Shown here: piece by piece, positions 44,573 through 63,493 of the stretch
How positions within the stretch are numbered: position 1 is the stretch's first letter
Layout of the letters: each line of letters starts with the position of its first letter
Source of the DNA: a virus
Taxonomy: Duplodnaviria; Caudoviricetes
Length of the DNA: 64,000 nucleotides
Virus record (IMG/VR): IMGVR_UViG_3300025168_000077
Coordinates: 2,131-66,130 of that record
Strand: one strand, 5' to 3'
Notes under the pieces: model-generated
Seen by the model: the letters and a program-made list of their open reading frames with translations, nothing else
Database searches by the model: none
Told to the model about the DNA's origin: nothing
Translations under genes and position numbers: made by a program

Positions 44573-46513
44573 ATGAGAATCCAGCCTCATTACAAGTTTA
44601 CAGTGAGCACGAATAGCGACCTTGGTTTGGCCACGTCGTTGTTGTCAATCGAAATGACGATACCTGGTACTCTCGTTTACGGGCGGACTGAAAGTAACCG
44701 CCGTGTTCGTCTTTCCAAACTAATCGAGCAGGGTAACGCGGAGGTTTCTGAATGTGTGGTCATGTCCCCTATTCATGGAGCGTGGCTTACAGAGCGCGCA
44801 ATACTCTCTTTAGGTGCAAGCTACGAGTTCTCGCCGCATTACACCGACGGCTATGATCTGACTGGATGGTCGGACGAAGAGGAGTCTCGAACTCGCCTAC
44901 ACGAGATGGGCAAGCTGGCGGCAATGTACAGCGTGTCCAGCGGCGAACTCAAGAGCCATGTGATTGAGATGGCGACTCCCTACCAGTTTATGAATGTCGC
45001 ATGGTGCGGCTCTCGGCCCGCATCGATGAATGTTTGGGCCTGTGGTAGCGGCAAAACGCTGGGTGCAATCATGTCAGCACTGGCTAAATCAGGGCCAGTT
45101 CTTGTCGTAGCTCCGGCCAAGGCTCGTCACGTATGGTGGTCTCAGGTGCAAGAGTACACCAACATCATGCCGTTTCGCATCCGACCGGCGTCAGGGCGCC
45201 GGAAGAAGGGCGGTACACTGGATGAGTACTTGCTCAAGTGCCGCCTTGAAAACACCCGACCCTTTGTCATTATCGGGGCAGAGTCACTGGCAGACAACAT
45301 GAACGCGGCGCGGAGCGTAGAGCCGACGACGCTGATCCTTGACGAGATACACACTCACGGCAGTCGTAAAAGATGGACCGCTATCCAAGAAGCTGACGGC
45401 AGTGTCTCTTTTGAAAGGAAGCGTACAGCTGCGAGCAGCCGGGTCAACTCTAAAGTCAGCCGGGAAACCCGCGCTGTTGCTGTGATGGACATCAGTAGAC
45501 TTCCGTCTTTGCAGAGACGCATCGGGCTTACGGCGACGCCCTTGGACGATGGCAGGCCACGCAGACTTTGGAGTCAGCTTGACCTTCTCTCTCCTGGGGG
45601 CTTTAGCCATAGCTATTCGCGCTTTGCTTTGCGTTATTGTGATGCCCGCCCTGGGCAATACGGTGGCCTTGACGACTCTGGTAGCAGTCGCATTGATGAA
45701 CTAAAAGCTCGCTGTTCTTTTCTCGTACACGAAGTGCCTTACTCTGAGAGCCATGCGGCCTTGCCAGATACACGGGTGCAGGTCGTTTACTTGAGCAACT
45801 CTCAGCTCAACAGGGCAGAGCGTTGGAGTGATGACCAAACGTTTGGTCAAGCAATCAAGGGCATAGCAAAGCAAGTAAAGTCAGAAGGAGCGTCTGCAAA
45901 AGAGCGCGTTGTGGAAGCGCGACTGGCGGAAGCATGCTCAAAAAAGAGGCGCTACGTCACAGACGAAGTTCTCGAAGGTTTGAAGGGAGGAGGTAAGGTT
46001 GTTGTGTTCACAGCAAGGCGTCGGGAGACCGAGCTTTGGGCACACGCCGTCCGTCGTGAGGTCACCCGTGGAGATGAGGCGCAAGGGAAGGTGCCTGTCT
46101 GGGTGGCCCACGGCGGCATTCCTGAATCAGAAAGGGACGCCATGGTGGATTCTTTTAGAGAGTCGACTGGTCCATGCTGCTTGATCGCGACAGGTCAAAG
46201 TGTCGGCACCGGTGTCGATGGTATGCAGACCGCAGACCTTGCCATCTTTGCGATGCTTCCGTGGAAGCCGGGTGACTTTGTTCAGTGGAAGGGTCGCTTC
46301 GACCGTCTCGGAGGTAGCCCTACTCTTCTCAAGGTGATCGTTGCCGAGGGTACGTATGACACTCGTGTGGTTGACATCTTGGTCGACAAGTTCGGTCCCA
46401 TTGAATCTTTTCTGAAAGCCGACGAGCTTGACGGCCTGGGAGAGAAGCTTCGGGGAACGGAAGACAAAGGGTCCATCTTGGACTCAATCATTACAAAACT
46501 GGGAGACAACTAA
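44573..46513 (+). CDS. SNF2-family helicase/ATPase
   Basis: GSGKT, ILDEIH, LTATP, LWSQL, GTGVDG, QWKGRFDR. Confidence 0.9.
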   Translation: MRIQPHYKFTVSTNSDLGLATSLLSIEMTIPGTLVYGRTESNRRVRLSKLIEQGNAEVSECVVMSPIHGAWLTERAILSLGASYEFSPHYTDGYDLTGWSDEEESRTRLHEMGKLAAMYSVSSGELKSHVIEMATPYQFMNVAWCGSRPASMNVWACGSGKTLGAIMSALAKSGPVLVVAPAKARHVWWSQVQEYTNIMPFRIRPASGRRKKGGTLDEYLLKCRLENTRPFVIIGAESLADNMNAARSVEPTTLILDEIHTHGSRKRWTAIQEADGSVSFERKRTAASSRVNSKVSRETRAVAVMDISRLPSLQRRIGLTATPLDDGRPRRLWSQLDLLSPGGFSHSYSRFALRYCDARPGQYGGLDDSGSSRIDELKARCSFLVHEVPYSESHAALPDTRVQVVYLSNSQLNRAERWSDDQTFGQAIKGIAKQVKSEGASAKERVVEARLAEACSKKRRYVTDEVLEGLKGGGKVVVFTARRRETELWAHAVRREVTRGDEAQGKVPVWVAHGGIPESERDAMVDSFRESTGPCCLIATGQSVGTGVDGMQTADLAIFAMLPWKPGDFVQWKGRFDRLGGSPTLLKVIVAEGTYDTRVVDILVDKFGPIESFLKADELDGLGEKLRGTEDKGSILDSIITKLGDN

Positions 46514-46683
46514 TGGACTTGACGGATGAACGATTCCACCGCCGCAAGGTGCCGTGGGCTTCTCTTGTTAAAGAGGGCATTGAACCTCAATCGGTTGTGA
46601 TTGAAGCACAACGACAAGGTTTGTGGAAGCTGGCTGAGAGTGCGGCTACTCGTATTCGCAACTGCAAGAATGGGTCTGCTTGA
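46513..46683 (+). CDS. 56-aa hypothetical protein (MDLTDERFHRRK...), absent from the track
   Basis: Fills the gap exactly, with TAATG and TGATG coupling. Confidence 0.7.
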   Translation: MDLTDERFHRRKVPWASLVKEGIEPQSVVIEAQRQGLWKLAESAATRIRNCKNGSA

Positions 46684-47666
46684 TGGATGGCATCTTGATT
46701 GACGCAGGTCGCTCCTCTCGTGGGTGGTCTCGGATTGGGACCTTCTTTCGTTGCCCTCAGCTCTTCGCTTATGGGGAACGCTTGAACTTAGAGATGATTC
46801 CTGCCGACGCACTTACGCGTGGGAGTATGGGGCATGTCATGCAGGCTCACCTGCACGCTATCTACGGCGCCAAGCAGGGGGGCTGCTGGGTAGACGACAA
46901 GTGGATCGATGACCCTGACATGCTCATGAAGCCCGAAGACGCGTTGTATGCGTACTGCGAGGCGAATGGGGGGCATGACTTTATTGATCGAATGCTTGAG
47001 ACATTCAGACGCTACCTCTACCAGTTCCCTGAATCACCGGGCCGCATCTTGTCGGTTGAGCATCAAGTAACTGCGGTGCTGGGTGAGAAGAACGGAGAGT
47101 GGGGGATGTGGGTAGTTCACCCGAAGGACCAAGACTTCCCACGAGACGCTGCAAAGATTCGAGCCTGTGATGAAGGCATCATCAAGCCGTCACCCCTCAA
47201 TGTACCTGGTCACCCCGATCACGGTAAGGCGGTGTCCCTTACTCGCAGAATGGACATGTCAACAAGGGACAGGTCCGGTAGGTCGTATGTCTGGGATCAC
47301 AAGCATCAGGCGAGGGTACAACCAGGCCGAAGCGTGGACGCTTACGCAATCGACGGAGGGTTTGCAGCTTTCCGCATCATGGGTCGTCAGTTGTACGGAG
47401 CAGACTTCGGAGGCGTGTCGTTGAACTTGATCCAAACGACTGCCCCTTGGCGAGTTGCTCGCCCCATGGTACCGACTACTCCTCATCGTGATCGACACTT
47501 TGCAGAGATGCTCTGGCGAGCGGAGCACCAACTCGCACGGCTCGATGTGGATACGCCCGACCACTGGTCCTGGCCAAAGGTTCAGCACGAAACGGCTTGT
47601 GTTGGCCGGTACGGATCGTGTGCTGGGATCAAGCTTTGCTTCTACGGAGAAGCTGGTAAGTACTGA
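46683..47666 (+). CDS. Cas4-like PD-(D/E)XK exonuclease
   Basis: CPQLF..., RGSMGH, SVE, RMD, WDHK and three C-terminal Cys (Fe-S staple pattern). Confidence 0.75.
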   Translation: MDGILIDAGRSSRGWSRIGTFFRCPQLFAYGERLNLEMIPADALTRGSMGHVMQAHLHAIYGAKQGGCWVDDKWIDDPDMLMKPEDALYAYCEANGGHDFIDRMLETFRRYLYQFPESPGRILSVEHQVTAVLGEKNGEWGMWVVHPKDQDFPRDAAKIRACDEGIIKPSPLNVPGHPDHGKAVSLTRRMDMSTRDRSGRSYVWDHKHQARVQPGRSVDAYAIDGGFAAFRIMGRQLYGADFGGVSLNLIQTTAPWRVARPMVPTTPHRDRHFAEMLWRAEHQLARLDVDTPDHWSWPKVQHETACVGRYGSCAGIKLCFYGEAGKY

Positions 47667-47719
47667 GCCACTTTGTTATTTTGATTTCTGACTGTTCGAG
47701 AACCCACTACGGAGAAACC

Positions 47720-48703
47720 ATGACCCAAGAAGATGGGCTGCCTACTGTTATGATTACAGTGTATGGCCAGCCAAAGAAACGAAAGACAAGCGACATGCTG
47801 GCAGCGTTCCCCAACGCACTGTTCATTGGGGTGCCATCTGCACTTTCTTTAGTCGCTCAAAACGAACTCGGCTTTTCGCCGTCTGTCTACCCAGACCCGC
47901 CTCAGGGGTTACCAGAGTTGGTGGCTTTGCTCACTCAGCTGAGCGAACAAGACCTGGCGTCTCAGTGTGGGGCCGTTGTCATTGATGACGCAAGCCACTT
48001 GTGCAAGCTATCAATGCTGCGGTGGGAAGAAGAAGCGCCGACGGGTCGATCAGGAAAGAAGGATCGCTTTTACCAGTACCAACAACTGGACCGCCACCTT
48101 CTTCAACTTGCAGGATTAGCGAGACACTTAGGTGTACACATGGCCATGAACTTCCACGAACGGATGCCTGGCTCGAATGCGGACGGTCACTTCTGCCCTG
48201 GCGGACCCGACGTTCCATCTCGTAACCAGGTGAAGACACTTCCCTCCTGGTGTGACATCAACGTGCGCGCAATGATTGATCCTTCGTACCCTGATCCGTG
48301 GTTTGCGGGCTCATACTACTGCGACCCCACCGACCCTGAGTGGATCACTGGAGATCGCACTGGGGTTTGCAAGAGCAAGACTCCCGGTAACCTTCGTGAG
48401 ATCCTTCGGGCGAGCAAGTCAAACTACCATCTTGGTAGAGTTCAGGGGCTTGAGTGGCAGGACGAAGTTGCCGACTCTGTTGCGTCGGCCTTAACGCAGG
48501 ACGTACCTGTGAAAGAGGCCATCGAACAAGCCGTTTCGGGTAGAAAAAATGAACCTCTTCACTTGCGTTGGGCTTGCCAAGACGGTATTGCAAGGGGTAT
48601 ACTCGCTAAGCAGCAATCTCGAAGCCTCTTTGACTTCGACCCGGAGCCTGAAGAACCCACCACAAACGGTGTGTCTTTGCCGCCTCCACCACCATCTTCC
48701 TGA
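47720..48703 (+). CDS. Sak4-like AAA ATPase/recombinase
   Basis: ITVYGQPKKRKTS, VVIDDAS, FHER; sits between exonuclease and SSB. Confidence 0.7.
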   Translation: MTQEDGLPTVMITVYGQPKKRKTSDMLAAFPNALFIGVPSALSLVAQNELGFSPSVYPDPPQGLPELVALLTQLSEQDLASQCGAVVIDDASHLCKLSMLRWEEEAPTGRSGKKDRFYQYQQLDRHLLQLAGLARHLGVHMAMNFHERMPGSNADGHFCPGGPDVPSRNQVKTLPSWCDINVRAMIDPSYPDPWFAGSYYCDPTDPEWITGDRTGVCKSKTPGNLREILRASKSNYHLGRVQGLEWQDEVADSVASALTQDVPVKEAIEQAVSGRKNEPLHLRWACQDGIARGILAKQQSRSLFDFDPEPEEPTTNGVSLPPPPPSS

Positions 48704-48759
48704 CGGTTTCCGTCTGGACCTCGGGCCTGACGCCCACCACTACAACAATGGAGCCAACA

Positions 48760-49341
48760 ATGGCTATCAACATTCCTCCCGGTGCATTTAAAGACATCCG
48801 TAGTTTCGGAGCTGGCGCACCTGACGCTGGCGTTTACGCAGTAAAGATCTTGCGGATTGAATCCAATCCCAATGACAAGCCTGGTAAGCGTCGGTTCCAC
48901 TTGCAGTTCGACAATGGGTTCACCATGTTCACATTTGTGAATGTTCCCTTCGAGAACGGCCAAGCAATCGCGGGTCTCTCTGAGAACCAAACTCGCGGTC
49001 AACTGGCTAACCTGCGAACAATCCTTGAGTCTCTCGGATACGACGGGTCGACTCTTGACTCGGGTAACGTGACCGATGATTGGTTCCTTCACGCCAACAA
49101 CCACGGTCGCCAAGGCTACGTTGACTTCGTTCCTTCTCAGAAGGGCGTGACCGGATCTTACAACGAGGTCAAGGGTTGGCTTAACCAGTCCGCCTACGAA
49201 GCTCGTAAAGACAACGGTGCTACCGCACAAAGCGCACCTGCCAGTGCTCCTGTGCCTTCCGCCGCGACTAACGGAGTTGCACCCTCCGCTGGTGCTGTCC
49301 TGCCCCCTCCACCAAGTGTGGCTCAGGGCATCATCAGCTAA
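48760..49341 (+). CDS. Putative ssDNA-binding protein (DUF669-like)
   Basis: PDAGVYAVKI, YNEVKGW, flexible tail; position in the module. Confidence 0.6.
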   Translation: MAINIPPGAFKDIRSFGAGAPDAGVYAVKILRIESNPNDKPGKRRFHLQFDNGFTMFTFVNVPFENGQAIAGLSENQTRGQLANLRTILESLGYDGSTLDSGNVTDDWFLHANNHGRQGYVDFVPSQKGVTGSYNEVKGWLNQSAYEARKDNGATAQSAPASAPVPSAATNGVAPSAGAVLPPPPSVAQGIIS

Positions 49342-49353
49342 AGTTGCGGCTTG

Positions 49354-49395
49354 AGTCGTCACTACCACGAGGTCCGGTGGTGGCGGCTTTTATTT
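49354..49395 (+). terminator. Intrinsic terminator after the SSB gene
   Basis: agtcgtcactacc / ggtggtggcggct stem with G-U pairs, then ttttattt. Confidence 0.65.
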
Positions 49396-49498
49396 AGACC
49401 AGGGGAGTTGTCCTTTACTTCCCGGAAAGTCCAGCAGGAAGGCATGTGGATGGTCGAATAGATGCCTTGACCTCAACCCTTACCTTTTAGGAGAAAAA

Positions 49499-49723
49499 AT
49501 GTTTTTAGAGTTTAAACGAAAGCAGCGTTCAATACAGCCCCTAAATACAGACGAGCGAGTGGCCATTAATACTAAGGCAATTGCTTATGTACTTCCCCTT
49601 AAGGGCGAAGGGACTTGCATTGTACTGATGGCTGCGCACCCAGAAGATCCCTCGGTTCTGGTTCAAGAATCCTACGATTATGTTTTAGACAGACTTTTTG
49701 TTGACGCAGACGAGTCGTCTTGA
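49499..49723 (+). CDS. Small FlbD-like protein
   Basis: AINTKAIAYV...GTCIVL...VQESYDYV pattern; AGGAG RBS. Confidence 0.5.
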   Translation: MFLEFKRKQRSIQPLNTDERVAINTKAIAYVLPLKGEGTCIVLMAAHPEDPSVLVQESYDYVLDRLFVDADESS

Positions 49724-49735
49724 GAGTAGAAGATC

Positions 49736-52480
49736 ATGCCCTTTGACCCGACAACACTTGGAGCACGATGTGACGTGTGCCCGTTGGGCCCTAAGGGCGA
49801 TCTTCGTAAAGGTGACTGGAAACCTGTAGGGTGCGAAGTCCACAAGGGAGCCACTGTGCTTGCTGTGGCTGAAAGCCCCGACCCCGAAGAAGTGCAGCAC
49901 GGTCGGCCCTTGGTGGGTCGGTCAGGTGGTGAATGGAATCGAGCTTTAGCTGCTTGTGGTAGGCGGCGGATTGACGTAGACCTCGATCATGTGATCGCTT
50001 GCAAGCTCCCAGGTCAAGCCTCTGGGGCCATGCGTAGACTCGGCAAAGCTGTAGACAAGCTAAACAAGAAGCGAGCTAAGGAAGGTCTTGAGGCGGTACC
50101 TCACCCTCTGACTTGCTGTAGGCCAAGGCTTCTCAACGTAGCATCTCGCTACCCGTCTTTGATTACACTGGGCAAGGTTGCAACCACGGCTCTTACTGGT
50201 GTCGGTAGCAGCATTCAAGCCACCCGTGGCGGACCAATGCGCATCACCAGTGACTGGGGTGTAACCACTGATCCAGACGAAACCGCCCACCGACTCTTAC
50301 CGTCACTCCACCCATCTTTTATTCTACGGTCGCCGAGTTGGCGCCGAGTGCTGCATTGCGACATCGGTAAGGCATTCCGCTGGTTCACTGATACCCTTGA
50401 GTGGACTGACCCCGATGTGCTGTGGCGACCTGAACCAAGCGAGCTTGAAGAATGGTTGAAGCAATCCGCTCCCTTCTGGGCTTACGATGTGGAGACGGAT
50501 GGCATTGAACCCATGGAGTGCAAGCTCCGTACGATTGCGATTGCAACCCCGGACCTGGATGAGAACGGGCGGGTCACCGACAAAGCAGCTGCGACTAAAT
50601 CTAAGGCGGTTGGCGTTAGCATCCTGAGCGCTGATGGCAGGACACACTTTTACTTACCGGAAGAAGAGTGGCGAATCAAAGACATCTTACGCGCTGCTTT
50701 TACAGACGGTCGTGTATGGGTGGGGCACAACGCTGGAAGCTACGACAGGATGGTGATTGAGAACTACCTGGGCATTACACCTGCACCTTTGGTTGACACT
50801 TTGTTCCCTGCACGATTCAGGGCACCTGACCTTCCCAAGGGGTTGAAGACCATCGGCTCTATCTTGACTGACGTGGAACGTTGGGAGACGACGGAGAAGG
50901 GTTCAAGCATTGCAACGGGTAGCACTGACGATGACGAGCTTCTTAGCTACAACATCATTGATACAGTAGTAAACGCTCGGATTACCCTACCGCTGATCAA
51001 GGCGGCCACTAACGCAGGTGCCTTCATACCGATTAGCGAAGGCATTAAACCCAACTCTTGGCCCTCCAATCGCTCATGGAATCTCAACGAGGTTGACCAC
51101 GAGACACAAGTCATGTGCGTGGAGATGCACAAGAACGGCGTCTGGGTAGACCAAAAGCGTAGGTTTGAGCTTGAGACTCGGTTCACTGCGTCTGTTAAGC
51201 AAAGAGAGAAACGACTGGACGACTTCGCTTCGGGGATCAATCCGGGTAGCTACGACCAGATCCGTGACTTGTTCTACAACAAGTGGAAGCTCGGCATTCC
51301 TCCGCAGATGGACGCCAAGGACTTTTACACTGACACGGGCGCACCTGGTACTGGTGACGCTGTGTTGCGCGCTCACATTGCAAGTGGGAACCTGTCAGAA
51401 GAACAGGACGCCTTTATCCGTGAGCTTAGGTTGTACCGCAGAGAGAAGAATAAGATCTTAGGTACGGTGCTCATCCCCTTGAATCGAAGAGACATCGACC
51501 CGAAGAAAGGTGTGGTTTGGGAAGACGGTAGGGTTCGTCCATCGTGGAACGCCCACGTCACCAGTGTGGCCCGCCTGTCTTGCTCGGGCCCTAACCTCCA
51601 GAACATTGGGAACCGTAAGGGGCAGGGGCCATTGAAGACTATCTTCGCCGCTCCTCCTGGGCACATCCTGGTGGGGGCGGACCTCGACCAGGCGCACCTA
51701 CGCATCATTGCCAACTACTGGAAGATCCCTCTCTTGATGGAATGCTTTGAAGAAGGCAAGGATCCTCACAACACACTTGCTCAGAATGTTTTTGGTGAGC
51801 GCTTTGAGAAAGCCAGCGGCTGGGGAGACGACGGCTTTAGCCTTTACAGTAAGCCAGCAGGCGGTGACGCTAAGTCGATGCGCGACGTGTGTAAGACACT
51901 TCGATACGCATCAGCCTACGCTGCGGATCCTGCCACTGTATGGCAAGTACTCACCTCCACTGAGACGGACGACGCCAAGCTACCGTACGTGGGAATGACT
52001 TTGAGAGAAGTCCGCGTCATGCACGAGACCTGGAAGTCCACTGAGCCTGAATGGGCTCAAGCCTGGGACTCCATGAAGAGTGTGTACGAACAACAGGGCT
52101 ACATGGAAGAGCCCATCATGGGTAGGCGAAGCGGCCCCCTTAGTGACGGCAAGCTTCAAGAGGTTGTTAACTTCCCCATCCTTGCGGCTGAAGGATCGAC
52201 CATGCGGTTGGCTGAAGCTCAAGTACGGGAGGCTTACCCCTTTGAGTTTGCGGGACCGGGCACTGGGATGATTCATCAATGCCACGATTCTATATGCGTG
52301 CAGATACCCCTGCCCAAAGGATTCGATCCGATGTGGGCACCCACTAAAGGCGAACCTCTACCACCTGAGATCGAAAAGATGAGACGCACCGTAGAGGAAG
52401 CAATGACTATTAAGATACCGGGTTGGCCCGTTGCGATGACCGCAGAAGCCGACGTGGGTCGAACACTGAAGGACGTATGA
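49736..52480 (+). CDS. polA: Family A DNA polymerase with N-terminal family-4 UDG-like domain and 3'-5' exonuclease
   Basis: UDG: CDVCPL, AESP, GRPLVGRSG, HPSFILR; exo: YDVET, HNAGSYD, YNIID; pol: RLSCSGPNLQN, DLDQAHLR, RDVCKTLRY, CHDS. Confidence 0.9.
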   Translation: MPFDPTTLGARCDVCPLGPKGDLRKGDWKPVGCEVHKGATVLAVAESPDPEEVQHGRPLVGRSGGEWNRALAACGRRRIDVDLDHVIACKLPGQASGAMRRLGKAVDKLNKKRAKEGLEAVPHPLTCCRPRLLNVASRYPSLITLGKVATTALTGVGSSIQATRGGPMRITSDWGVTTDPDETAHRLLPSLHPSFILRSPSWRRVLHCDIGKAFRWFTDTLEWTDPDVLWRPEPSELEEWLKQSAPFWAYDVETDGIEPMECKLRTIAIATPDLDENGRVTDKAAATKSKAVGVSILSADGRTHFYLPEEEWRIKDILRAAFTDGRVWVGHNAGSYDRMVIENYLGITPAPLVDTLFPARFRAPDLPKGLKTIGSILTDVERWETTEKGSSIATGSTDDDELLSYNIIDTVVNARITLPLIKAATNAGAFIPISEGIKPNSWPSNRSWNLNEVDHETQVMCVEMHKNGVWVDQKRRFELETRFTASVKQREKRLDDFASGINPGSYDQIRDLFYNKWKLGIPPQMDAKDFYTDTGAPGTGDAVLRAHIASGNLSEEQDAFIRELRLYRREKNKILGTVLIPLNRRDIDPKKGVVWEDGRVRPSWNAHVTSVARLSCSGPNLQNIGNRKGQGPLKTIFAAPPGHILVGADLDQAHLRIIANYWKIPLLMECFEEGKDPHNTLAQNVFGERFEKASGWGDDGFSLYSKPAGGDAKSMRDVCKTLRYASAYAADPATVWQVLTSTETDDAKLPYVGMTLREVRVMHETWKSTEPEWAQAWDSMKSVYEQQGYMEEPIMGRRSGPLSDGKLQEVVNFPILAAEGSTMRLAEAQVREAYPFEFAGPGTGMIHQCHDSICVQIPLPKGFDPMWAPTKGEPLPPEIEKMRRTVEEAMTIKIPGWPVAMTAEADVGRTLKDV

Positions 52481-52911
52481 ACAAGTCACGCTGGTTCTTG
52501 GCTCACTCGAAGAATGATGAAGACAGTAACATTGACGCATGGTGCGCCGAGGTGCGTGATCTTATGTCAGATGATCTCTGGCAAGCTGAGGTGACTTCGG
52601 GTCGAGACGACTACAAGTCCCGCGCTTCAGCTCTTGGCGGCTGGTCAGCTTGGTGCAGAGACGTATCGATAGGCGAATCATACACCGGTGACCCGATGTT
52701 CCACGGCATCGTTGTACCTGTAAATATGAGTGAGCAAGTCTCTGTGGGTAAGGCTACTGCTCAACTCGTTGAGGGATTCATCAGTCGGAAGAAGCACGCC
52801 TTTGCTTGGTGCGTCTGCGACAAGGTGTTCAAGATTATACTCGGCGTACAACCTATTGAATCAGACGACTGGGTAAGCTGGTCGGTACTTATTCTTGAGG
52901 ACCCAACTTGA
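52477..52911 (+). CDS. Hypothetical protein, possibly NDT/TIR-like flavodoxin fold
   Basis: WFLAHSKND start, GIVVPV, VGKATAQLVE...KKHAFAW; ATGA overlap with polA. Confidence 0.4.
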   Translation: MNKSRWFLAHSKNDEDSNIDAWCAEVRDLMSDDLWQAEVTSGRDDYKSRASALGGWSAWCRDVSIGESYTGDPMFHGIVVPVNMSEQVSVGKATAQLVEGFISRKKHAFAWCVCDKVFKIILGVQPIESDDWVSWSVLILEDPT

Positions 52912-52936
52912 CGCAGCGGTATTAGTACCATACGAT
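52908..52936 (+). promoter_or_regulatory. Sigma70-like promoter with operator-like motif
   Basis: TTGACG-17-TACGAT containing ACGCAGCGGTA. Confidence 0.7.
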
Positions 52937-52989
52937 CCACATTCCATCAGGTGACTGACTCTTGGTGGCACTTACAACTCGGAGACACA

Positions 52990-55008
52990 ATGTCCAAAAA
53001 ACCCGTACGTCCGTACGTCAAATCTGTTTTCAGTAATCTAAAATCACCCCTCCCTTCCGGTGCACCTTGGTCCATCGAGCTTGGTCGGTACACGTTGTTG
53101 GTAGGTTCAAACACCAGCCACAAGAGCAGCGTCATCCAAGCTGTGGAGCTTGCCGCTTCAGGGTCCGTCGATGATGTCGTCGGGCGAAGCGACGTAAAAG
53201 ACTCTGGTCTTCTCATGTCTTTGATCGCCGATGGTCTGGATGAGTTGCACGCCAACGTGTCTCTCTCGGATGATGACAACGGTAGCTTTCGACTCCAAAG
53301 AGATCTTGAGACAGGTAAGAACAAACGACCTCAACACAACGGCCTGGGTGACAATGTACTGACACACCGTGCTGTTCGAGCTGCGTTGTCGGGCTCTGTT
53401 GCAACTCGACGCAAAGCATTCCTGGGATGGATCGGTGGTGGTGTCTCGCAAGAAGACATCTATGCCTGCATTCCTTCTGACCTGCACGCTAAGTTCGACG
53501 ACCTGTGGGGGCACATTGGTCGTGGCCTTTCTCCCATGGACTCATTGATTGCCATCGGTGACTACACAGCCAAGCAGAGTCGAGACCTCTCAAAGCAACG
53601 AAAGAATGCTGAGTCGGTAGTCAGCGAGTTGATTGACGTGAACTTGGATGCTGCCCCTAATGACGATGACATTGAGCGACTTAACCAAGCAGTTAAAAAC
53701 GCTCAGAGTCTACTCGAAGCAGCCGCTGCATGCTCCAACGGGATGCCAGAGTCACTGAGACAAAGCCAGATGGCTGAGTGCGAAGAGGAAATGAATCGCC
53801 TCAAGAACGATATGACTCAGATCAATCATCAAGTGGAGTCACTTCAAAGCCAAGTCGTTTCAGTTCCAGACTACGTGAAGTCGGGCCTTGAGTCATTGAC
53901 CTGGGCGATTGAAAACGAAATCGATCAATGCCCCACATGCAGTAGTCAAGTAGGCTCCGATCACTTGGTCAACTGCCGCGACTTCTTCTCTAAACAAGTA
54001 GACGACGCGTCCGCTGCGAGCACCAGTGTGGTCACCACCATGGCTCAACTTGAATCAGAGATGCAGTCTCGTCGACGAAGCTACGCCGACGTTGAAAGAA
54101 AGCTGACTGACTTGTCCAACACAGCATCAAGCACAGACGCTGGGTTGTCTCTTGAAGATGCACGCGACCGGTTGAACGCAGCGTCTCTTGCGCTGAACAA
54201 CACCATGATTGTTAAGTCAAAGTGGGATCAGATTGTCGCTTCAAAAGAACTGATCGCAAACTTGGAGACAGACACTGAGCGTTACAAGATGCTCAGTTCA
54301 ACGTGCAGCGACGCCATGAAGTCGATCTTGGGTAGTCAGTCAGAGCGATTCACCAAGATGGTGAACAGTCATCTACCCGGTGACTGGTTGTTTGATGTTG
54401 TCCTTAAAGACGAGCGCCTAACCGACACGTTTAAGATCGGCCTTGTGCGAGACGGCAACCTTCACGAGGCTTTGTCTGGAGCAGAGTGGGCCACCGTGAC
54501 CACCGCAATATCGATGGCGGTAATCCAGCTGGGCCTCTCATCGAAGCAACCAGCTATCCTCATCCCTGAAGATCGTGCGTGGGACGGCAAGACACTAAGC
54601 TCTGTCATGCGCAGCTTCCGAAACTTTGATGGCCAGGTCATTATGGCAAGCACAATCCGACCCACGGGGAGAGCGCCTGCTGGGTGGACCATCATCGATA
54701 TGGACAAGAAGTCTTCCTCCTGGTTGGGATCGGGAGAAGAACCTGAGCCCGAAGTTCGTAATGAAGATGTGATCCGTCGGCCAAAGGCATCAACTAAGAA
54801 CGTCGTCACTACCGCCAGTGCGGTTGCTGTATCCATGATGGGGTTCAGCGAGGATGACGTGAAGCTGATGACACGAAAGACGGCAGCCGACATCATCAAG
54901 AAGAACCTGTCACCCGGTGACATCACGGTCTTGGAAGACGGTAGCTACTCATTGAAGAATGGCGGTAAGGTTCTCAACCTCCCCCAACCTCCGAGTCGTC
55001 AATCGTGA
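52990..55008 (+). CDS. Rad50/SbcC-like coiled-coil ATPase with zinc hook
   Basis: GSNTSHKSS (deviant Walker A), central CPTC, LSGAE signature, ILIPED. Confidence 0.75.
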   Translation: MSKKPVRPYVKSVFSNLKSPLPSGAPWSIELGRYTLLVGSNTSHKSSVIQAVELAASGSVDDVVGRSDVKDSGLLMSLIADGLDELHANVSLSDDDNGSFRLQRDLETGKNKRPQHNGLGDNVLTHRAVRAALSGSVATRRKAFLGWIGGGVSQEDIYACIPSDLHAKFDDLWGHIGRGLSPMDSLIAIGDYTAKQSRDLSKQRKNAESVVSELIDVNLDAAPNDDDIERLNQAVKNAQSLLEAAAACSNGMPESLRQSQMAECEEEMNRLKNDMTQINHQVESLQSQVVSVPDYVKSGLESLTWAIENEIDQCPTCSSQVGSDHLVNCRDFFSKQVDDASAASTSVVTTMAQLESEMQSRRRSYADVERKLTDLSNTASSTDAGLSLEDARDRLNAASLALNNTMIVKSKWDQIVASKELIANLETDTERYKMLSSTCSDAMKSILGSQSERFTKMVNSHLPGDWLFDVVLKDERLTDTFKIGLVRDGNLHEALSGAEWATVTTAISMAVIQLGLSSKQPAILIPEDRAWDGKTLSSVMRSFRNFDGQVIMASTIRPTGRAPAGWTIIDMDKKSSSWLGSGEEPEPEVRNEDVIRRPKASTKNVVTTASAVAVSMMGFSEDDVKLMTRKTAADIIKKNLSPGDITVLEDGSYSLKNGGKVLNLPQPPSRQS

Positions 55009-55232
55009 AGTGTTTTACCTGCGGGATAAACACGAAAGTTATAACGACACGAACAGCAGACTCAGCGCCGGGATCAAACCCGTCGTTGATTCGTCGAGGC
55101 AACGAGATTGCAGGTTGGTACACGTCCGAGTGGGTAATCCGCATACGCAAATGCACTCCCTGCAAGAAGACGTGGCAAACGATTGAGATACCCGTGGAAG
55201 ATTTAACTCAGGGCTGGGCCCCTCAGGAATGA
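55005..55232 (+). CDS. NrdR-like zinc-ribbon protein
   Basis: MKCFTCG..TKVITTR...IRIRKCTPC...WQTIE. Confidence 0.7.
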   Translation: MKCFTCGINTKVITTRTADSAPGSNPSLIRRGNEIAGWYTSEWVIRIRKCTPCKKTWQTIEIPVEDLTQGWAPQE

Positions 55233-55286
55233 TGATACGGGCGGCATGATCGAAAGAAACGATTGTGCTGCCCTTTAATCTTCGGT

Positions 55287-55316
55287 TTGACACGCATTGC
55301 GGCGGGTCGATAGATT
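55287..55316 (+). promoter_or_regulatory. Sigma70-like promoter upstream of the DUF927 helicase
   Basis: TTGACA-18-TAGATT. Confidence 0.6.
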
Positions 55317-55438
55317 AACTGAACCGGACCTCGGTTACTTCAGTCACGCTTGCGGGAACGACCAACGGCGATGACTAAGTGTGCGGGGTTGGTAACTGAC
55401 AAGACTATTCAACAAATGACTTTTACAATGGCGGCACA

Positions 55439-57547
55439 ATGGACAACGACAACTCGGTTGAAGAACGATCAACCGGGTCAGCAGCGCAGCAGCAGAACCC
55501 CGGAATCGACACACTACAAACGCTCTTAGCATCCCTTCGGGAAGGTGATGCGGCAACGCAGAGAGCAGCATGGATCAGCGTACAAGATCCAAACGTAATG
55601 ACCAGCCTCGCAGAGAGCTGGCAGTCTGACAACGACACAGCTGAAACACTTCTGATCACAATCGGATCTATCCGTGGCCAAGCCACACGGGCACGCAACC
55701 TTCGGTCTGCCGTCCGCAACTTGTCAGAGTCTCTCGTTCGGCGACGATCAGATGAGATGTTGGATGAACTCGAAGAGAGTCTGTCGGCCAACATGTCTTT
55801 GTCTGTTTGCTTTGGCGAAGCTGGGCCTCCGCCTTCGATTGTATCCTCCGACATCCTTTCTGTTCTTGTTGCTCCTCGTGGCTTTGCTGTTGATGCTGTT
55901 GGCGTTTACCGCCTTTCTGCTTCTCCCGAAGGCGATCTGGTGCGCACTCGCATTGCTGCTGCTCCCTTCTTTATTGTGGGCAGGACCAGCGATGTTCTTA
56001 CTGGCGAGGCCAAGCTGCAAGCTGTGTGGCGTGGTCCTGCTGGATGGTGCAGTCGTGTTGTTAACCGACGCACTTTGATGGACACGAGCAAACTCATCGG
56101 CCTGGCAGACCTGGAAGCTCCGGTCAGCAGCATGAACTTGGCAAACCTTGTCGCCTACCTGGCTGACTTCGAGGCAGAGAATCGCCATCGGTTGTCGGCT
56201 CTTCGGTCTACACCGCGCATGGGCTGGCAGCCTGGGGGAGGGTTCCTTCTTCCAGAAAGCTACTACGCAACGGCAGACGAGTCTGACGAACAACTGGTGC
56301 TGACTCCACCACCTGGCTTTGAGTCTATGTCGAAGGGGTGGACAACTTCGGGGACCTGGGAGGAGTGGCTTGAAGCTGCCTCACTGATCAGTCCTTACCC
56401 ACACATGCACGTTGCCATCTACGCGAGTGTAGCTGCACCTCTCATGAAGGTACTACGGTTGCCTGGTTTCGTGGTTGACTTCAGCGGCGAGACAAGTGGA
56501 GGAAAGACTACTGCACTAAGGTTCGCTGCTTCAGTATGGGGCAAGCCCAGTGAGAACTACCCGACGGCCATGTACTCTTGGGATGCGACCAAGGTTTGGA
56601 TCGAACGGACTGCCGGGTATCTTCAGAATCTCCCGCTGCTTCTGGACGAAACCAAAAGGGCGAAGCACAACGGCATCGTTCGCGATGTCATCTACGACTT
56701 CTGCCAGGGCCAAGGTCGAGGGCGCGGATCAGTGGACGGCACACGCTACACAGATTCATGGCAGTCCATCCTCATCAGCACAGGAGAGGGCGCAGCCACA
56801 GACTTTAGCGAAGACGCAGGAACAAGAGCGCGCGTTCTCTCGCTCAAAGGAAAGCCCCTGGGCGCAGACCCAGACGTTGGCGGTCAAGTCAGCGAGGAAA
56901 CACAGGCGCTGCTCAGCAACAACTACGGCCATCTCGGGCGTAAGGTCATCGAGTATCTGGTCGCGAACCAGCCAAGGCACAACGAGATTCGTGCGGTGTT
57001 CAAGGAAGCACGGGACAAGTACTCTCAGATTGCGAAGACGGCAGTGGCCAGGCGTCACGCTGCTCACCTCGCTGCGCTTGAGATTGCTGCGGGAATCACG
57101 CGTCAACTTGGTGTACCTCCCTGCCAGGAGGATCCGTTTGCCTTCTTGATCGAGTGCCAGGAATCAGCTGGCCGGGATGCAGACCGACCCCTGGCTGCTT
57201 TCCAAGACATGCTCTCCTGGTGCACAGCCAACTCCGTGCGCTTCCATGGACGACACGAGGTGACTGGGCATGGGCACAGCCGTGTTCCTTCTACGGGATG
57301 GGCCGGTCAGTGGAGCAAGGACCAGGACTGGACTGAGCTAAAGATCACAACTCTCACAGTCAGAGAGGTACTCAAGAACCTGGGCCACCATCCTGCTGAG
57401 ATCCTCAACCGGTGGGCAGAGCGGCAGTGGATAGTCGTAGCCCCCGACGGCAAGAACAAACGGAGTCGTCCTGTGCGCATCGAGGGTGCGATCATGCGGT
57501 GCTATTTCGTTAGCCGAGAAGCGATGGAAGCCTGCTTGGGGGACTAA
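55439..57547 (+). CDS. DUF927/Cch-like replicative helicase without a primase domain
   Basis: RMGW, GTWEEW, GETSGGKTT, PLLLDE, GQGRGRG, ISTGE, GTRAR, NYGHLG. Confidence 0.85.
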   Translation: MDNDNSVEERSTGSAAQQQNPGIDTLQTLLASLREGDAATQRAAWISVQDPNVMTSLAESWQSDNDTAETLLITIGSIRGQATRARNLRSAVRNLSESLVRRRSDEMLDELEESLSANMSLSVCFGEAGPPPSIVSSDILSVLVAPRGFAVDAVGVYRLSASPEGDLVRTRIAAAPFFIVGRTSDVLTGEAKLQAVWRGPAGWCSRVVNRRTLMDTSKLIGLADLEAPVSSMNLANLVAYLADFEAENRHRLSALRSTPRMGWQPGGGFLLPESYYATADESDEQLVLTPPPGFESMSKGWTTSGTWEEWLEAASLISPYPHMHVAIYASVAAPLMKVLRLPGFVVDFSGETSGGKTTALRFAASVWGKPSENYPTAMYSWDATKVWIERTAGYLQNLPLLLDETKRAKHNGIVRDVIYDFCQGQGRGRGSVDGTRYTDSWQSILISTGEGAATDFSEDAGTRARVLSLKGKPLGADPDVGGQVSEETQALLSNNYGHLGRKVIEYLVANQPRHNEIRAVFKEARDKYSQIAKTAVARRHAAHLAALEIAAGITRQLGVPPCQEDPFAFLIECQESAGRDADRPLAAFQDMLSWCTANSVRFHGRHEVTGHGHSRVPSTGWAGQWSKDQDWTELKITTLTVREVLKNLGHHPAEILNRWAERQWIVVAPDGKNKRSRPVRIEGAIMRCYFVSREAMEACLGD

Positions 57548-57710
57548 CTTCGGTTGCCCCACTCGCAGGTAGTGCACATCTTGTCACTCGCGAGGTTCTT
57601 CTTCGCCTTCTTCTTGCAGCGCCAGGGACCAACTCTGGTGCTGCACTGAGGGCAACGCGTCCAGTAAAGAGGGAACGACACGCCGTTTGAGTAGTCAACG
57701 TACAGCATGG

Positions 57711-58034
57711 CTAAGCCCTCGCTGGTTCGGGAAGTTCCAACTTCTTGTTGTGACTGCCGCAGCTAATGATCAAGTGACGTATGGCCCAGATTGAAACCAG
57801 GTCCACCACGTCAATGGCAGACTCATCGGTGAAGCTAACAAGCTCAACGTCTTCCACGTACATGACGGCTACGTACTCGTCGTACGATTGCTCGGGGTCA
57901 ACGAGTGTGCCGTCGTCGGTCTTGAATACGATCACGCTTACTGGCTTCTCCAGCCAGTCAGTCATCTTTTCTTCCAACTCCTCCACGGTAATCTTGAGGT
58001 AGTCCAGTTGGCATTGGCTAAGTTCATTGTTCAC
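57711..58034 (-). CDS. Hypothetical acidic protein
   Basis: AAGGAGG RBS; last gene of a leftward operon. Confidence 0.55.
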   Translation of the reverse strand: MNNELSQCQLDYLKITVEELEEKMTDWLEKPVSVIVFKTDDGTLVDPEQSYDEYVAVMYVEDVELVSFTDESAIDVVDLVSIWAIRHLIISCGSHNKKLELPEPARA

Positions 58035-58605
58035 TTTGCCCCTCCTTGTTTTGTGCTTTCACAATCATTGTACTAACACTATCTGCTTGAGTCACTTCGT
58101 TGCCCCAAGAGTCCCAACCATCTCGCGTGTTCCGTGCGAACATCTCCAGGTAGGGGCCTGTGCTGCGAGCTTCGATGAGGTCGTAGAACGCAGGGGGTTT
58201 GGTGCTGTGTGGCCCACGCACGGCGTGTACCCAGCTTCTGAGCGTGCGGTCATCAGTCTTCACCTTGAACCCGCTGCCCCTGACTCCGAAGAGCAGAAGC
58301 TCGTGCTGCCCACGGAAGTACTGACCCAGCCCGATGCGGTCCTTGGTCCATACGACGTTGGTCTTGTACTTGAACCCCATCGCACCCATGAGCCAGATGG
58401 CGTCAGCCAGGAAGCTGTTGGTCGCCCACATGTACAGGTGACAGTCAGTCGCAGGGTACCATACCCCTGACTGGTAGATCACAGAGGGCATGTCTTCGGT
58501 CTTGACCAACGGGTAGTGCTTGTCAGCACCACGTTTGATCTTGCCTCCACCTCGTTCGTTCCATGGTGGATCCATCAGGATTGTGGGGTATTTCTTTCTA
58601 ATCAC
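58024..58605 (-). CDS. MT-A70-family N6-adenine methyltransferase
   Basis: MDPPW, LYMWATN, WTK..IGLGQYFR..HE, HSTKP, LEMFAR, GWDSWGNE. Confidence 0.92.
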   Translation of the reverse strand: MIRKKYPTILMDPPWNERGGGKIKRGADKHYPLVKTEDMPSVIYQSGVWYPATDCHLYMWATNSFLADAIWLMGAMGFKYKTNVVWTKDRIGLGQYFRGQHELLLFGVRGSGFKVKTDDRTLRSWVHAVRGPHSTKPPAFYDLIEARSTGPYLEMFARNTRDGWDSWGNEVTQADSVSTMIVKAQNKEGQSEQ

Positions 58606-58805: not shown

Positions 58806-59059
58806 GCGTCTCCTACAGGGTTCAGTGCCGTGGACAGTTCGTCCATGGCGTGGGTGGTTTCTTCGTATCGAATGGCTTCTTGGTGTTCACGACACCCATC
58901 GCAGGTGCCTTCTTCGTTGTCGGGACCAACGGCGTCGTCGCAGTTGACGGATATGCAAGGGCGGCAAGCGCACTCAACGGTCCCGCTCAAGTGGTACTCC
59001 TGGTCGCACGTTTCGCACACGCGGTAGTACATGCCCCAGTCTGCTGGCAATCCACTCAT
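58802..59059 (-). CDS. Cys-rich hypothetical protein
   Basis: CETC, CAC..C, CDGC; coupled. Confidence 0.55.
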   Translation of the reverse strand: MSGLPADWGMYYRVCETCDQEYHLSGTVECACRPCISVNCDDAVGPDNEEGTCDGCREHQEAIRYEETTHAMDELSTALNPVGDA

Positions 59060-59601
59060 CGCGCACCTCCTTTGAACTTGGCCCCTCTTTTCCCTCGACG
59101 AATGTCCCTTCCCTCACGACGCAATCGATATGCGGTCATTGATGCTGCTTGCAAAGACCTCTTGGTGACGGGCACACCGATGGCTGTAAGGAAGTCGCGG
59201 GGGCCATCGCCCTGGTTCCAGATGTGAGCGAACGTGTGTATGGTCAAGGGCTTGATCGATCTGAACACCAACGCAAGATTATGGATCGTCACGCCTTTAT
59301 CATCCACCGCCTCCAAATAGTTACCGCCAGGAGCAAGGGTGTATCCAGGAGGTATCTCGCCAGGAGGTATGTAGGCGGGTGCGGGGGTAACGACTGGCTC
59401 TACCTCATTGGCTTTCGCCGAGGACTTCTCGCGAACAGAGTCGTCAAGCCAACTCACGCATTGCTTCTTGGCTGCCTCGTTGATGATCCATGCTGCGGCA
59501 GGGGGGTCAGGTTGCTTCACCGATTCCATGGCCCAGCGTACAACGCACGCCATCTCGTCTCGGGTCAGTGTCAGTGTCAGTGGTTTCTTCTCAGCCATCA
59601 T
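59056..59601 (-). CDS. Hypothetical protein
   Basis: AGGAGG RBS; coupled. Confidence 0.6.
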   Translation of the reverse strand: MMAEKKPLTLTLTRDEMACVVRWAMESVKQPDPPAAAWIINEAAKKQCVSWLDDSVREKSSAKANEVEPVVTPAPAYIPPGEIPPGYTLAPGGNYLEAVDDKGVTIHNLALVFRSIKPLTIHTFAHIWNQGDGPRDFLTAIGVPVTKRSLQAASMTAYRLRREGRDIRRGKRGAKFKGGAR

Positions 59602-60801: not shown

Positions 60802-60838
60802 AGTTGGACTTGGCATGAGTTGAATGGTAAGCTGGGGT

Positions 60839-61366
60839 ATGGATAATGATGAGCCTAATGAACAGATGGTTTCTCCAGCGAGTGCTGACTTGCATGTTGT
60901 TTCGACCACTGTAGTTCCAGCAGGTGAAGCCGAAGTAGCTGCAATGTTGGCTGAGCAAGTACGATTCTCAGATGAACCAGAGACTCAAGCACTTGCGTAC
61001 AGACTTCTGGAAGCAGGTCACACCGTACGATCCACCGCCAGGCGCCTCGGCGTTAGGCCGACCACCGTGTGGAGTTGGTCCACTGACCCGGAAGGGCAAG
61101 AGGCCATCCAAGCAGGGCAGGCCCGCCGTCGATCCGTCTTGGGCGAGGGGATGGAGGAGGCAGCTGAAGCCGCACTGAGTTCCCTGCTCGAAGTGGCAAC
61201 CGACCTTGCGGCAGCACCGAGAGACCGGGTCAAAGCATCCGAGGCAATCCTTGACCGATGCGGTATTACTCCCCACCAATCAACTGATCAAACCACCGTG
61301 GCCGTCACTGTTGATGTAGACTTTGACGAGAGACTGGCTCGCATCGTGGCCGGGGCTCAGTCATAA
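60839..61366 (+). CDS. HTH protein, putative terminase small subunit
   Basis: HTH TVRSTARRLGVRPTTVWSW; RDRVKASEAILDRCG. Confidence 0.6.
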   Translation: MDNDEPNEQMVSPASADLHVVSTTVVPAGEAEVAAMLAEQVRFSDEPETQALAYRLLEAGHTVRSTARRLGVRPTTVWSWSTDPEGQEAIQAGQARRRSVLGEGMEEAAEAALSSLLEVATDLAAAPRDRVKASEAILDRCGITPHQSTDQTTVAVTVDVDFDERLARIVAGAQS

Positions 61367-62809: not shown

Positions 62810-63493
62810 TCAGTGTTGGAGGAATACGATCAAAGGGGCGCGCTCACCGTTGACGTGCTGAGCGTCGCACAACCCGCACGAGTTACAGTCGACGGCTTTG
62901 TGCTGCGCTGGGCAGACGATACCGTCGCGTCCGTCGGGCGTGGTGAACTTCTCACCGTTCCATTCGGGCAGGTGCTTAAGCGTCGCGCGCTTGGATCCCG
63001 GTGCCCGGAAGTCGGCTACCATAGCGGCCCGCCACCCCTCGCGGATCCTATCGTCCGCCTCATCGAGCGAGTGAACCGAGGCCATAGCCAAGCCCTTAAG
63101 GTGGGCGCCCTTGTCCGCAGCAAAGTGCGTATAAAGCAGTAGGCCCTTGAGCCCTGCATCTTTCAACTGGCTCGCCCATCCTGCGACTTCCTCGCGCGGA
63201 AATACCCAAGGGTCACCGCCGACAGCGCCGCGTCCGTATCGGGCCGTGCGCCTTGACTCACCGATGGCGTGCTCAAGTGAATACCGCTCGGGCTTATTGA
63301 CATAGGCACGCTGCATGCTGGCCTGAGCGCGTCGGGCTCCGAGCCAGTGATAGCACCCGTCCTTCCGCATGGGGCAATCTTCGCAGCTCTTCTCGGTCTG
63401 CTCCTTGTCTTCTCCCACGTACCCTTGGGGAATGTCGCCGGTCTTATCGTTCTTGGATCGCCCAACCCACAACATTTTGAATTGCTTTTTCAT
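62810..63493 (-). CDS. Cys-rich GP88/DUF7227-like (radical-SAM-like) protein
   Basis: SKNDKTGDIP, SCEDCP....GCY, GGDP, YTH, ASV, VCPAQ...CNSCGLC. Confidence 0.55.
   Translation of the reverse strand: MKKQFKMLWVGRSKNDKTGDIPQGYVGEDKEQTEKSCEDCPMRKDGCYHWLGARRAQASMQRAYVNKPERYSLEHAIGESRRTARYGRGAVGGDPWVFPREEVAGWASQLKDAGLKGLLLYTHFAADKGAHLKGLAMASVHSLDEADDRIREGWRAAMVADFRAPGSKRATLKHLPEWNGEKFTTPDGRDGIVCPAQHKAVDCNSCGLCDAQHVNGERAPLIVFLQH

Follow-up and report, generated by a model that had tools for sequence, protein, structure and literature searches.

A UDG-PolA with histidine at the steric-gate position

The 64,000-nucleotide stretch analysed here (hereafter the window) comprises bases 2131–66130 of the 66,130-bp virus record IMGVR_UViG_3300025168_000077, for which CheckV estimates a completeness of 93%. 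Its portal, terminase and head genes indicate that it derives from a podovirus-like phage. Inside a plus-strand replication and recombination block, extending from 44573 to 57547, lies a polA gene (49736..52480, plus strand) whose 914-residue product, P0001, carries a uracil-DNA glycosylase (UDG)-like domain, a 3'-5' exonuclease domain and a family A DNA polymerase domain (Pfam; phrog_17 DNA polymerase, E 3.5e-64). The Pfam model DNA_pol_A matches residues 478–858 with 89.8 bits (E 2.3e-25) against a cut-off of 34.3, placing P0001 in family A. The exonuclease domain (50441..50995, plus strand) is matched by DNA_pol_A_exo1 over residues 236–378 at 20.1 bits, under the cut-off of 23.6, and has intact Exo motifs (D251/E253, N332/D337 and Y405/D409). 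All six of these residues are invariant in an alignment of 45 homologues sharing 59–90% identity.

Motif A of the polymerase domain reads DLDQAHLR (51680..51703, plus strand), with the CAC codon of His654 at 51695–51697 occupying the steric-gate position. In the Klenow enzyme the gate residue, E710, contacts the sugar of the incoming nucleotide. Window bases 51674–51709 encode GADLDQAHLRII, and HMMER pairs 'vgadldqahlriia' of P0001 with 'vsadysqielrima' of Klenow (SADYSQIELRIM), which sets His654 on Glu710 and D649 on Klenow D705; the catalytic aspartate of motif A is present. Motif B is RDVCKTLRYASAYA (residues 716–729; 51881..51922, plus strand), which includes R723 and in which R716, K720, Y724 and Y728 correspond to Klenow R754, K758, F762 and Y766 when matched by eye on motif spacing. 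Motif C is QCHDS (residues 848–852; 52277..52291, plus strand), where H850 and D851 are followed by Ser852 at the position of Klenow E883, the motif C glutamate. The initial annotation had read the three motifs in the same way, motif A at exactly these coordinates, and the DNA, the translation and the HMMER pairing all bear this out. Residues G647–L655 (GADLDQAHL), R716, K720, Y724, Y728 and Q848–S852 are likewise invariant in the 45 aligned homologues, and their conservation is not a matter of chance. P0001 has no glutamate at the steric gate (E710 in Klenow, position A2 in Czernecki et al.), and the histidine that takes its place is invariant in the family.

A histidine-gate branch of an uncultured superfamily

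An exhaustive HMMER search identified 474 cluster representatives (50%-identity clusters) at E ≤ 1e-30, the best 150 of which were used to tally residues. Among these 150 the gate residue is His in 71, Glu in 76 and Asp in one, two being unscorable. The clade with DQxHLR in motif A that the initial annotation had anticipated thus exists; it comprises these 71 representatives, and the viral collection contains 81 loci that belong to it. At the third position of motif C the same 150 have mostly Ser (78) or Ala (47), more rarely Gln (10) or Glu (two), seven being unscorable, and motif C is without Glu in 141 of the 143 scorable representatives. In motif B the position of F762 is occupied by tyrosine in most rows of both groups (57/67 with a His gate, 60/67 with a Glu gate), and that of G763 by alanine (44/67 and 56/67, respectively). 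At the N761 position 46/67 rows with a His gate have Arg and 29/67 with a Glu gate have Gln, while Asn is among the common residues of neither group. The ExoI D..E pair is kept in 62/63 His-gate and 76/76 Glu-gate representatives. Because HDS, Tyr and Ala occur in Glu-gate relatives as well, and HDS also in SPO1, they are not special to P0001 but are traits of the whole superfamily; only His, and in part Arg, marks the lineage.

The history of the gate was followed on a FastTree phylogeny of 145 polymerase domains (from 151 rows, six with fewer than 70% of columns filled having been removed), built with the gate column masked and no outgroup. Two to three changes of gate state suffice, namely one deep split and a small His clade (P0179, P0221 and P0218) nested among Glu sequences, and we therefore regard the gate as an old, stable lineage trait rather than an ad hoc adaptation. 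The tree is unrooted, so the direction of change, towards His or towards Glu, is not readable from it.

In joining a family-4 UDG-like domain, a 3'-5' exonuclease and a PolA domain in one chain, P0001 resembles the UDG-PolAs of the N4-like cluster #17 and of the SPO1 type. Czernecki et al. (2023, PMC10201439) describe as UDG-PolAs this cluster #17 together with SPO1, SP-10 and SP-15, with other UDG-PolAs not yet forming a cluster, and the gate is their 'position A2', a highly conserved residue in that reclassification of PolA. Further likenesses are the HDS of motif C, as in SPO1 (VHDS), and a location, shared by N4, in a replication module that also has genes for a Sak4-like protein and an exonuclease. 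The SPO1 replicase, itself a UDG-PolA with the motifs FDYSQLELRI, RTASKKIQFGIVYQ and VHDS, has a Glu gate, however, where P0001 has His, and the SPO1 genome is annotated with primases. Motif A of the N4 polymerase, GLDFASLEDRI, also differs from the His gate of P0001. Identity to N4 gp39 is 28% over 227 residues, with the UDG and exonuclease parts unaligned, and position B3 is Tyr724 in P0001 as against the Phe reported for cluster #17 in PMC10201439. Since P0001 has neither a close relation to N4 gp39 nor Phe at B3, we place it, on sequence grounds, outside the N4-like cluster #17.

Cultured phages yielded no close homologue: none of the 491 matching records of the phage collection covers at least 80% of P0001, and the best identities are 20–26%. 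A literature search returned no paper on a natural or engineered family A polymerase with a gate His; the supplements of PMC10201439, which lay outside that search, may list such UDG-PolAs. The CRP-810 roseophage family was considered and set aside as unrelated, as the account in PMC11288001 gives it a Prim-Pol and no PolA. What appears to be new here is a large uncultured His-gate branch of the already known UDG-PolAs, paired in this family with a Rep/Cch-type helicase and with no recognisable primase.

The UDG-like domain of P0001 (residues 38–202; 49847..50341, plus strand) scores 29.5 bits against a Pfam UDG cut-off of 24.3 and matches the family-4 UDG structures 1l9g, 1vk2 and 1ui0 at E values of 6e-6 to 1.2e-5. 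Its Fe-S cysteines C12, C15, C89 and C128 are invariant in the 45 homologues, and the four are kept in both the His- and the Glu-gate clade. The elements that we take to serve uracil excision are the GEAPG motif, a stacking Phe, a pocket Asn and the His of HPS; in P0001 the pocket residues are partly replaced (AESPD, Leu59 and Gln94), and His192 is present. The pocket is mostly canonical in Glu-gate rows (Gly 60/76, Glu 56/76, Phe 56/76, Asn 43/76, His 63/76) and degenerate in His-gate rows (Glu 33/72, Phe 25/72, Asn at the N89 position 8/72, His 42/72). Decay of the UDG pocket and the change of gate go together across the two clades.

Two further peculiarities emerged from the alignments. Seven His-gate representatives (P0169, P0179, P0218, P0221, P0226, P0249 and P0266; locus L167) have NYDS as motif C, with Tyr for the His, otherwise universal, of the His-Asp pair. 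Many PolA homologues (P0109, P0114, P0117, P0126, P0201, P0205, P0210, P0217, P0238 and others) are 1200–2000 residues long, with an alignment that breaks inside motif B ('------FVHN..'); some of them carry an HNH domain (PF13392), and they look like polymerases with inteins inserted at motif B.

The replication block and its DUF927 helicase

All genes of the block described here lie on the plus strand. It opens with an SNF2-family helicase (44573..46513; Pfam SNF2-rel_dom and Helicase_C, phrog_62 DNA helicase), followed by a PD-(D/E)XK nuclease (46680..47666; Pfam PDDEXK_1 at E 0.0011, below cut-off, and phrog_1218 exonuclease) and a Sak4-like AAA_24 ATPase, a putative single-strand annealing protein (47681..48703; 24.1 bits against a cut-off of 27, phrog_124 Sak4-like). 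P0274 (48748..49341; 197 residues) has no Pfam or PHROG match; its language-model neighbours include DUF669-bearing clusters (score 0.94), a lead that it may possibly be like a single-stranded DNA-binding protein. The 74-residue open reading frame (ORF) P0005 (49499..49723) lies directly upstream of polA, and P0004 (52477..52911; 144 residues counted from its ATG) overlaps the polA stop codon as ATGA. Next come P0002 (52951..55008), a 685-residue SMC/SbcC-like ABC-type ATPase with a coiled coil (phrog_77 SbcC-like, E 1.2e-9; relatives match AAA_23 and SMC_N), and P0276 (55005..55232), a 75-residue CxxC...CxxC zinc-ribbon protein whose GTG start overlaps the P0002 stop as GTGA (Pfam Zn_ribbon_NrdR, E 4e-4, below cut-off).

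For P0004, P0005 and P0276 no PDB, Pfam or PHROG family assignment was obtained, and no usable Atlas match for P0004. To judge by eye from its sequence, P0004 looks like an alpha/beta nucleotide-binding fold and not a beta-barrel. A predicted complex of P0004 with PolA residues 225–914, that is, without the UDG domain, scored 0.02 against a mark of 0.32, a result that speaks neither for nor against binding. The P0004 family (alignment A11, about 145 residues) shows the pattern F.AH ... SGRDD ... W..W ... FVVP ... G[KR]ATA..L.

The block ends with P0003 (55439..57547; 702 residues), a DUF927 helicase of the type of Rep from the Staphylococcus aureus pathogenicity islands (SaPI) and Cch from SCCmec. 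It consists of a helical N-domain (residues 1–150), the DUF927 domain (residues 151–435; 138.5 bits in Pfam) and a candidate C-terminal Cch-type helix-turn-helix (residues 586–691), for which HTH_56 gives 23.8 bits, below its cut-off of 26.2. Homology to the SaPI Rep and SCCmec Cch structures extends along the protein and takes in the AAA+ core, with the Walker A motif GETSGGKT at 56486–56509; P0003 matches 8tch at E 6.4e-30, in an alignment that extends from residue 180 through to residue 694, and 5dgk at E 1.6e-15, and the profile of the helicase family matches 8tch at E 3.1e-54 over positions 153–703. By this homology P0003 is a predicted self-loading helicase of the SaPI Rep/SCCmec Cch type. 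What it has in addition is the N-domain of about 150 residues, which has no clear structural relative. Its first 120 or so residues are predicted with confidence as a helical bundle (predicted local distance difference test, pLDDT, above 90 for residues 21–100), in agreement with the helical N-terminus that the initial annotation had described. A DnaG/DnaB-like helicase N-domain was considered and dropped: DnaG_DnaB_bind matched weakly in 6/29 members (best E 0.0038) and ABATE in 8/29. The N-domain profile matched no PDB sequence, and the best hits of the model were a Foldseek E of 0.87 and a VIA Z of 7.4, the latter being at noise level for helical bundles.

Gene neighbourhoods of the His-gate and Glu-gate clades

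The viral collection supplied 81 loci with a His gate and 80 with a Glu gate, at which we compared the surroundings of polA by clustering the flanking ORFs. Clusters of PolA, Sak4, the SMC-like ATPase, the PD-(D/E)XK nuclease and SNF2 are common to both clades, the SNF2 helicase being found at 51 His-gate and 46 Glu-gate loci. P0004 is shared as well (50 His-gate and 38 Glu-gate loci) and always lies directly downstream of polA. Other clusters are confined to the His-gate side, namely P0274 (58 loci against none), the DUF927 helicase (38 against none) and the zinc-ribbon P0276 (21 against none). When DUF927 was sought by hidden Markov model (HMM) at loci with at least 5.5 kb of downstream sequence, it was present at 32/33 His-gate and 0/38 Glu-gate loci.

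Instead of the DUF927 helicase, 20 Glu-gate loci carry a protein of about 737 residues. Its C-terminal half is a DUF5906/VapE superfamily 3 (SF3) helicase related to the helicase domain of the NrS-1 'Primase' (6k9c, E 1.4e-19). The N-terminal 380 residues, modelled with a mean pLDDT of 82.7, match archaeo-eukaryotic primases (AEPs) by fold, including the S-2L PrimPol (6zp9, E 1.2e-6), the poxvirus E5/D5 primase-helicases, the LigD polymerase domain and the CAPP Prim-Pol, and PHROGs calls residues 43–175 'DNA primase'; Pfam missed the AEP domain entirely. The profile of this AEP domain matched 7/10 Glu-gate records with a completeness of 90% or more, six of them strongly and the seventh at E 4e-7 over the zinc-finger part only. 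At 11/20 Glu-gate loci with both flanks of at least 8 kb, neither the AEP-SF3 protein nor a DUF3987 protein was found within 10 kb. The six-frame match to the AEP primase-helicase contains one in-frame TAG in each of the Glu-gate records G022, G024 and G026, which may only mean that the match begins ahead of the real start codon.

The collections searched give only thin coverage of the remaining His-gate lineages. When two smaller alignments of such lineages served as queries, most of the loci returned had a Glu gate, and a degenerate motif pattern gave 6 viral and 27 metagenome loci, with a UDG-PolA in 11. A second His-gate lineage, with GADADQIHLRI in motif A (loci L181, L184, L189, L193 and L211), is without DUF927 and has a DUF3987 protein nearby; the His gate is therefore not tied to the Cch2-like helicase. 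DUF3987 proteins also occur near some Glu-gate loci and in N4, whose gp43 (DUF3987 plus PriCT_1) is annotated as DNA primase. PHROGs names the families that these proteins match 'DNA primase', but the phrog_3022 match takes in no more than the later part of its model, and Pfam sees DUF3987 alone. For the DUF3987 proteins of the GADADQIHLRI lineage we found no PDB relative and, with hhalign, no similarity to the AEP profile. The association of the His gate with loss of the primase, resting as it does on essentially one lineage, is suggestive but thin.

Search for a primase

No TOPRIM or AEP primase domain was detected by Pfam in the record (14 + 36 + 33 = 83 ORFs, 33 of them searched at E ≤ 1), and PHROGs, which does detect the primase of the sister clade, found none in 69 ORFs (27 + 42). 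The search was extended to 14 genomes, the record itself and 13 relatives that are 91–100% complete, seven of the 13 being rated 100%. Six-frame scans with PF09250, PF13155, PF13662, PF01807 and PF01896 were negative in 0/14 fashion for each model, that is, no record gave a match, with control genomes positive; with PF08708 the record and 12 relatives were negative and one relative gave a sub-threshold 15.2 bits. The same six-frame method recovers DUF927 in 14/14 records, which indicates that it works on these genomes. The AEP profile of the sister clade, searched over every one of the record's 855 stop-free frames, reached a best E of 0.95. The PHROG names of P0003 ('DNA primase/helicase' and 'DNA primase') cover its helicase part only, and the adjacent AEP primase of SaPI (Pri) has no counterpart beside P0003. 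The claim of the initial annotation that the window holds no TOPRIM or AEP primase is upheld by all four approaches, as is its expectation that genomes of the clade lack primases, with none recognisable in the 14 near-complete genomes of the family. This absence holds at the level of HMMs, many small or unannotated ORFs being without a fold test.

Role of the histidine gate and origin of primers

Domain architecture, motif identities and their conservation, clade structure, gene neighbourhoods and the absence of HMM-detectable primases are observed here, whereas the enzymatic properties considered below are predictions. We favour, at slightly better than even chances, the view that P0001 is an ordinary primer-dependent replicase with a variant gate, whose primers come from a host primase, transcripts or recombination. 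An uncultured marine podophage family, its genomes measuring about 65–74 kb, would use P0001 as its proofreading replicase of family A. The enzyme belongs to a very large uncultured UDG-PolA superfamily that as a whole is without the motif C Glu (HDS/HDA) and has Tyr at F762, and one deep branch of which appears to have swapped the gate Glu for His. As with the His of PolD, and probably that of Pol III alpha, the imidazole of His654 in all likelihood continues to block the 2'-OH, and P0001 would stay a primer-dependent polymerase of deoxyribonucleotides (dNTPs). Continued exclusion of ribonucleotides (rNTPs) by His654 is the simplest reading of the analogy with these enzymes: in published accounts PolD H931 is a proven His steric gate and Pol III alpha H760 a modelled or presumed one. 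Like P0001, the enzymes of families D and C have a His at the point of contact with the 2' position of the nucleotide to be added, but their folds are unrelated to that of P0001. A proofreading replicase is also favoured over a primase because the exonuclease motifs are invariant, and a primase must keep its dinucleotides.

Replication would be started by the DUF927 helicase, which by homology is expected to load itself at the origin. Primers would most likely be supplied by host DnaG, by transcripts or by recombination intermediates and not by a recognisable phage primase. According to the introduction of Bebel et al. (PMC7581432), SaPI can do without its primase in vivo, and this, together with the homology of P0003 to Rep/Cch, makes host priming plausible with a helicase of this type. 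Recombination-dependent initiation is possible because Sak4-like, nuclease, SNF2 and SbcC-like genes flank polA in both clades; the intermediates would arise through the co-encoded Sak4-like annealase, PD-(D/E)XK nuclease, SNF2 helicase and SbcC-like ATPase.

Several observations weigh against this view of P0001 as a primer-dependent replicase. Among the 50 best fold matches of the helicase N-domain there is neither a DnaG nor a DnaB structure. Beside the helicase gene no iterons turned up, the region 54900–58100 containing only two-copy short repeats, though origins may lie elsewhere. This view accounts neither for the invariance of His nor for the enrichment of Arg at the N761 position alongside it. 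Finally, all 14 near-complete genomes of the family are without a recognisable primase while seven of the ten Glu-gate records counted above match the AEP profile, which is the pattern that self-priming predicts.

The initial annotation had gone further, proposing that the substitutions may let the polymerase prime itself or accept rNTPs. In such a scheme PolA would start chains aided by P0004, P0005 or P0276 and coupled to the Cch2-like helicase, with the His gate and Arg723 as parts of the adaptation. There is one precedent for priming by an A-family enzyme, CCPol-MP of SCCmec (Bebel et al. 2020, PMC7581432), the only A-family primase known, and the locus does resemble the CCPol-MP-Cch2 module: genes for an A-family polymerase and a DUF927/Cch-type 3'-5' helicase share one operon-like block, small ORFs lie between them, the start of P0004 overlaps the polA stop, and there is no classical primase. 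The distribution of genes fits as well, with a primase in 0/14 genomes, DUF927 in all 14 and nearly confined to His-gate loci (32/33 against 0/38), and an AEP-SF3 primase-helicase in Glu-gate relatives. The precedent itself argues the other way on mechanism. CCPol keeps E710 and F762 and uses dNTPs only (PMC7581432), so that it offers no precedent for a gate change that enables priming; the greater part of its exonuclease domain is missing, and priming requires bound MP, a five-stranded beta-barrel on the exonuclease remnant (PMC7581432; PMC10201439). Unlike CCPol, P0001 has a UDG domain, a complete and conserved exonuclease and a His gate, and unlike the SCCmec module its block has a 685-residue SMC-like ATPase between polymerase and helicase. 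No homologue of MP was recognised among P0004, P0005 and P0276 with PDB, Pfam and PHROGs, searches that did not include direct comparison to the MP sequence. P0004 is just as much a feature of Glu-gate genomes with AEP primases (50 His-gate and 38 Glu-gate loci), and the link between gate and helicase amounts to essentially one evolutionary event, another His-gate lineage having DUF3987 and not DUF927. Three of the four changes cited in the initial annotation are superfamily-wide, occurring also with a Glu gate in genomes that have primases, and His is described as a working gate in PolD. The comparative part of that annotation, the existence of the clade and the absence of primases, has thus stood up; its mechanistic step to priming and rNTP use has not found support. 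We consider such self-priming unlikely. The full form of the idea, a globally distributed marine family that dispenses with a dedicated primase, its PolA with His gate and Arg at the N761 position starting chains with a translationally coupled partner or the zinc-ribbon protein at origins opened by the Cch2-like helicase, strikes us as very improbable.

A primase of the phage's own that is too divergent for HMMs might instead hide among the unannotated ORFs, for example at 4620-5582, 7312-8208 or 59056-59601 (all minus strand) or in the DUF932-like ORF. That the sister AEP domain is invisible to Pfam and was seen only by PHROGs and by fold makes absence at the Pfam level a weak argument; most small ORFs of the record are unannotated, and the record's completeness is estimated at 93%. 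We nevertheless find this possibility doubtful, as PHROGs, which sees the sister primase, found none in the 69 ORFs, the sister AEP profile was blank in every frame, and the seven of 13 relatives rated 100% complete are equally negative. In another reading the His gate and the degenerate UDG pocket would suit ribonucleotides or dNTPs modified in sugar or base, the phage DNA itself being modified. The gate residue does contact the sugar of the incoming nucleotide, as established for Klenow E710, and the uracil pocket departs much further from the canonical residues when the gate is His (8/72 rows have Asn at the N89 position, against 43/76 with a Glu gate). SPO1-type UDG-PolAs moreover copy hydroxymethyluracil DNA in the phages that carry them, as reported in PMC10201439. 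But SPO1 itself has a Glu gate, His is bulky enough for the gate role, and in the record Pfam and PHROGs revealed, besides the MT-A70 methyltransferase, no gene for nucleotide modification, whether for a dUTPase, a thymidylate-synthase-like enzyme, a hydroxymethylase or another. A gate adapted to unusual nucleotides therefore has, in our judgement, little probability.

The glutamate steric gate has been treated as a constant of family A polymerases, and a natural clade with an invariant His provides a ready-made test of sugar selection in this fold, as well as a source of polymerase variants for biotechnology. The primase-negative family with its Rep/Cch-type helicase, set against a sister clade with an AEP primase-helicase, offers a clean comparison for how phages obtain primers. 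Were PolA to prime after all, the single SCCmec precedent would be extended to phage replication; P0001 would stand beside CCPol as a second, independent case of an A-family primase-polymerase, and would be the first such enzyme in the replisome of a lytic phage.

Further features of the phage record

The structural genes on which the podovirus-like assignment rests, identified in Pfam and PHROGs scans, are a P22/SU10-type portal (9102-10844, minus strand), the large terminase (11116-12852, minus strand), the major head protein (12974-14068) and the small terminase (60824-61366). Downstream of the replication block lie the MT-A70-type DNA methyltransferase (58024-58605, minus strand) and a DUF7227 protein (62810-63523, minus strand). 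The DUF932-domain protein mentioned above (351 residues, E 2.6e-5) is encoded in the 2.1 kb that precede the window, at the record's left end (L002:1335-2390, minus strand). Two tandem DUF2589 genes occupy 2857-3351 and 3361-3966, with homologues also in the related contigs L038 and L045. A polyvalent protein of 2989 residues (26762-35731) contains an ART-PolyVal ADP-ribosyltransferase domain (residues 1520–1705) and a GNAT-like segment (residues ~1380–1440), and is probably a virion-delivered multi-effector.

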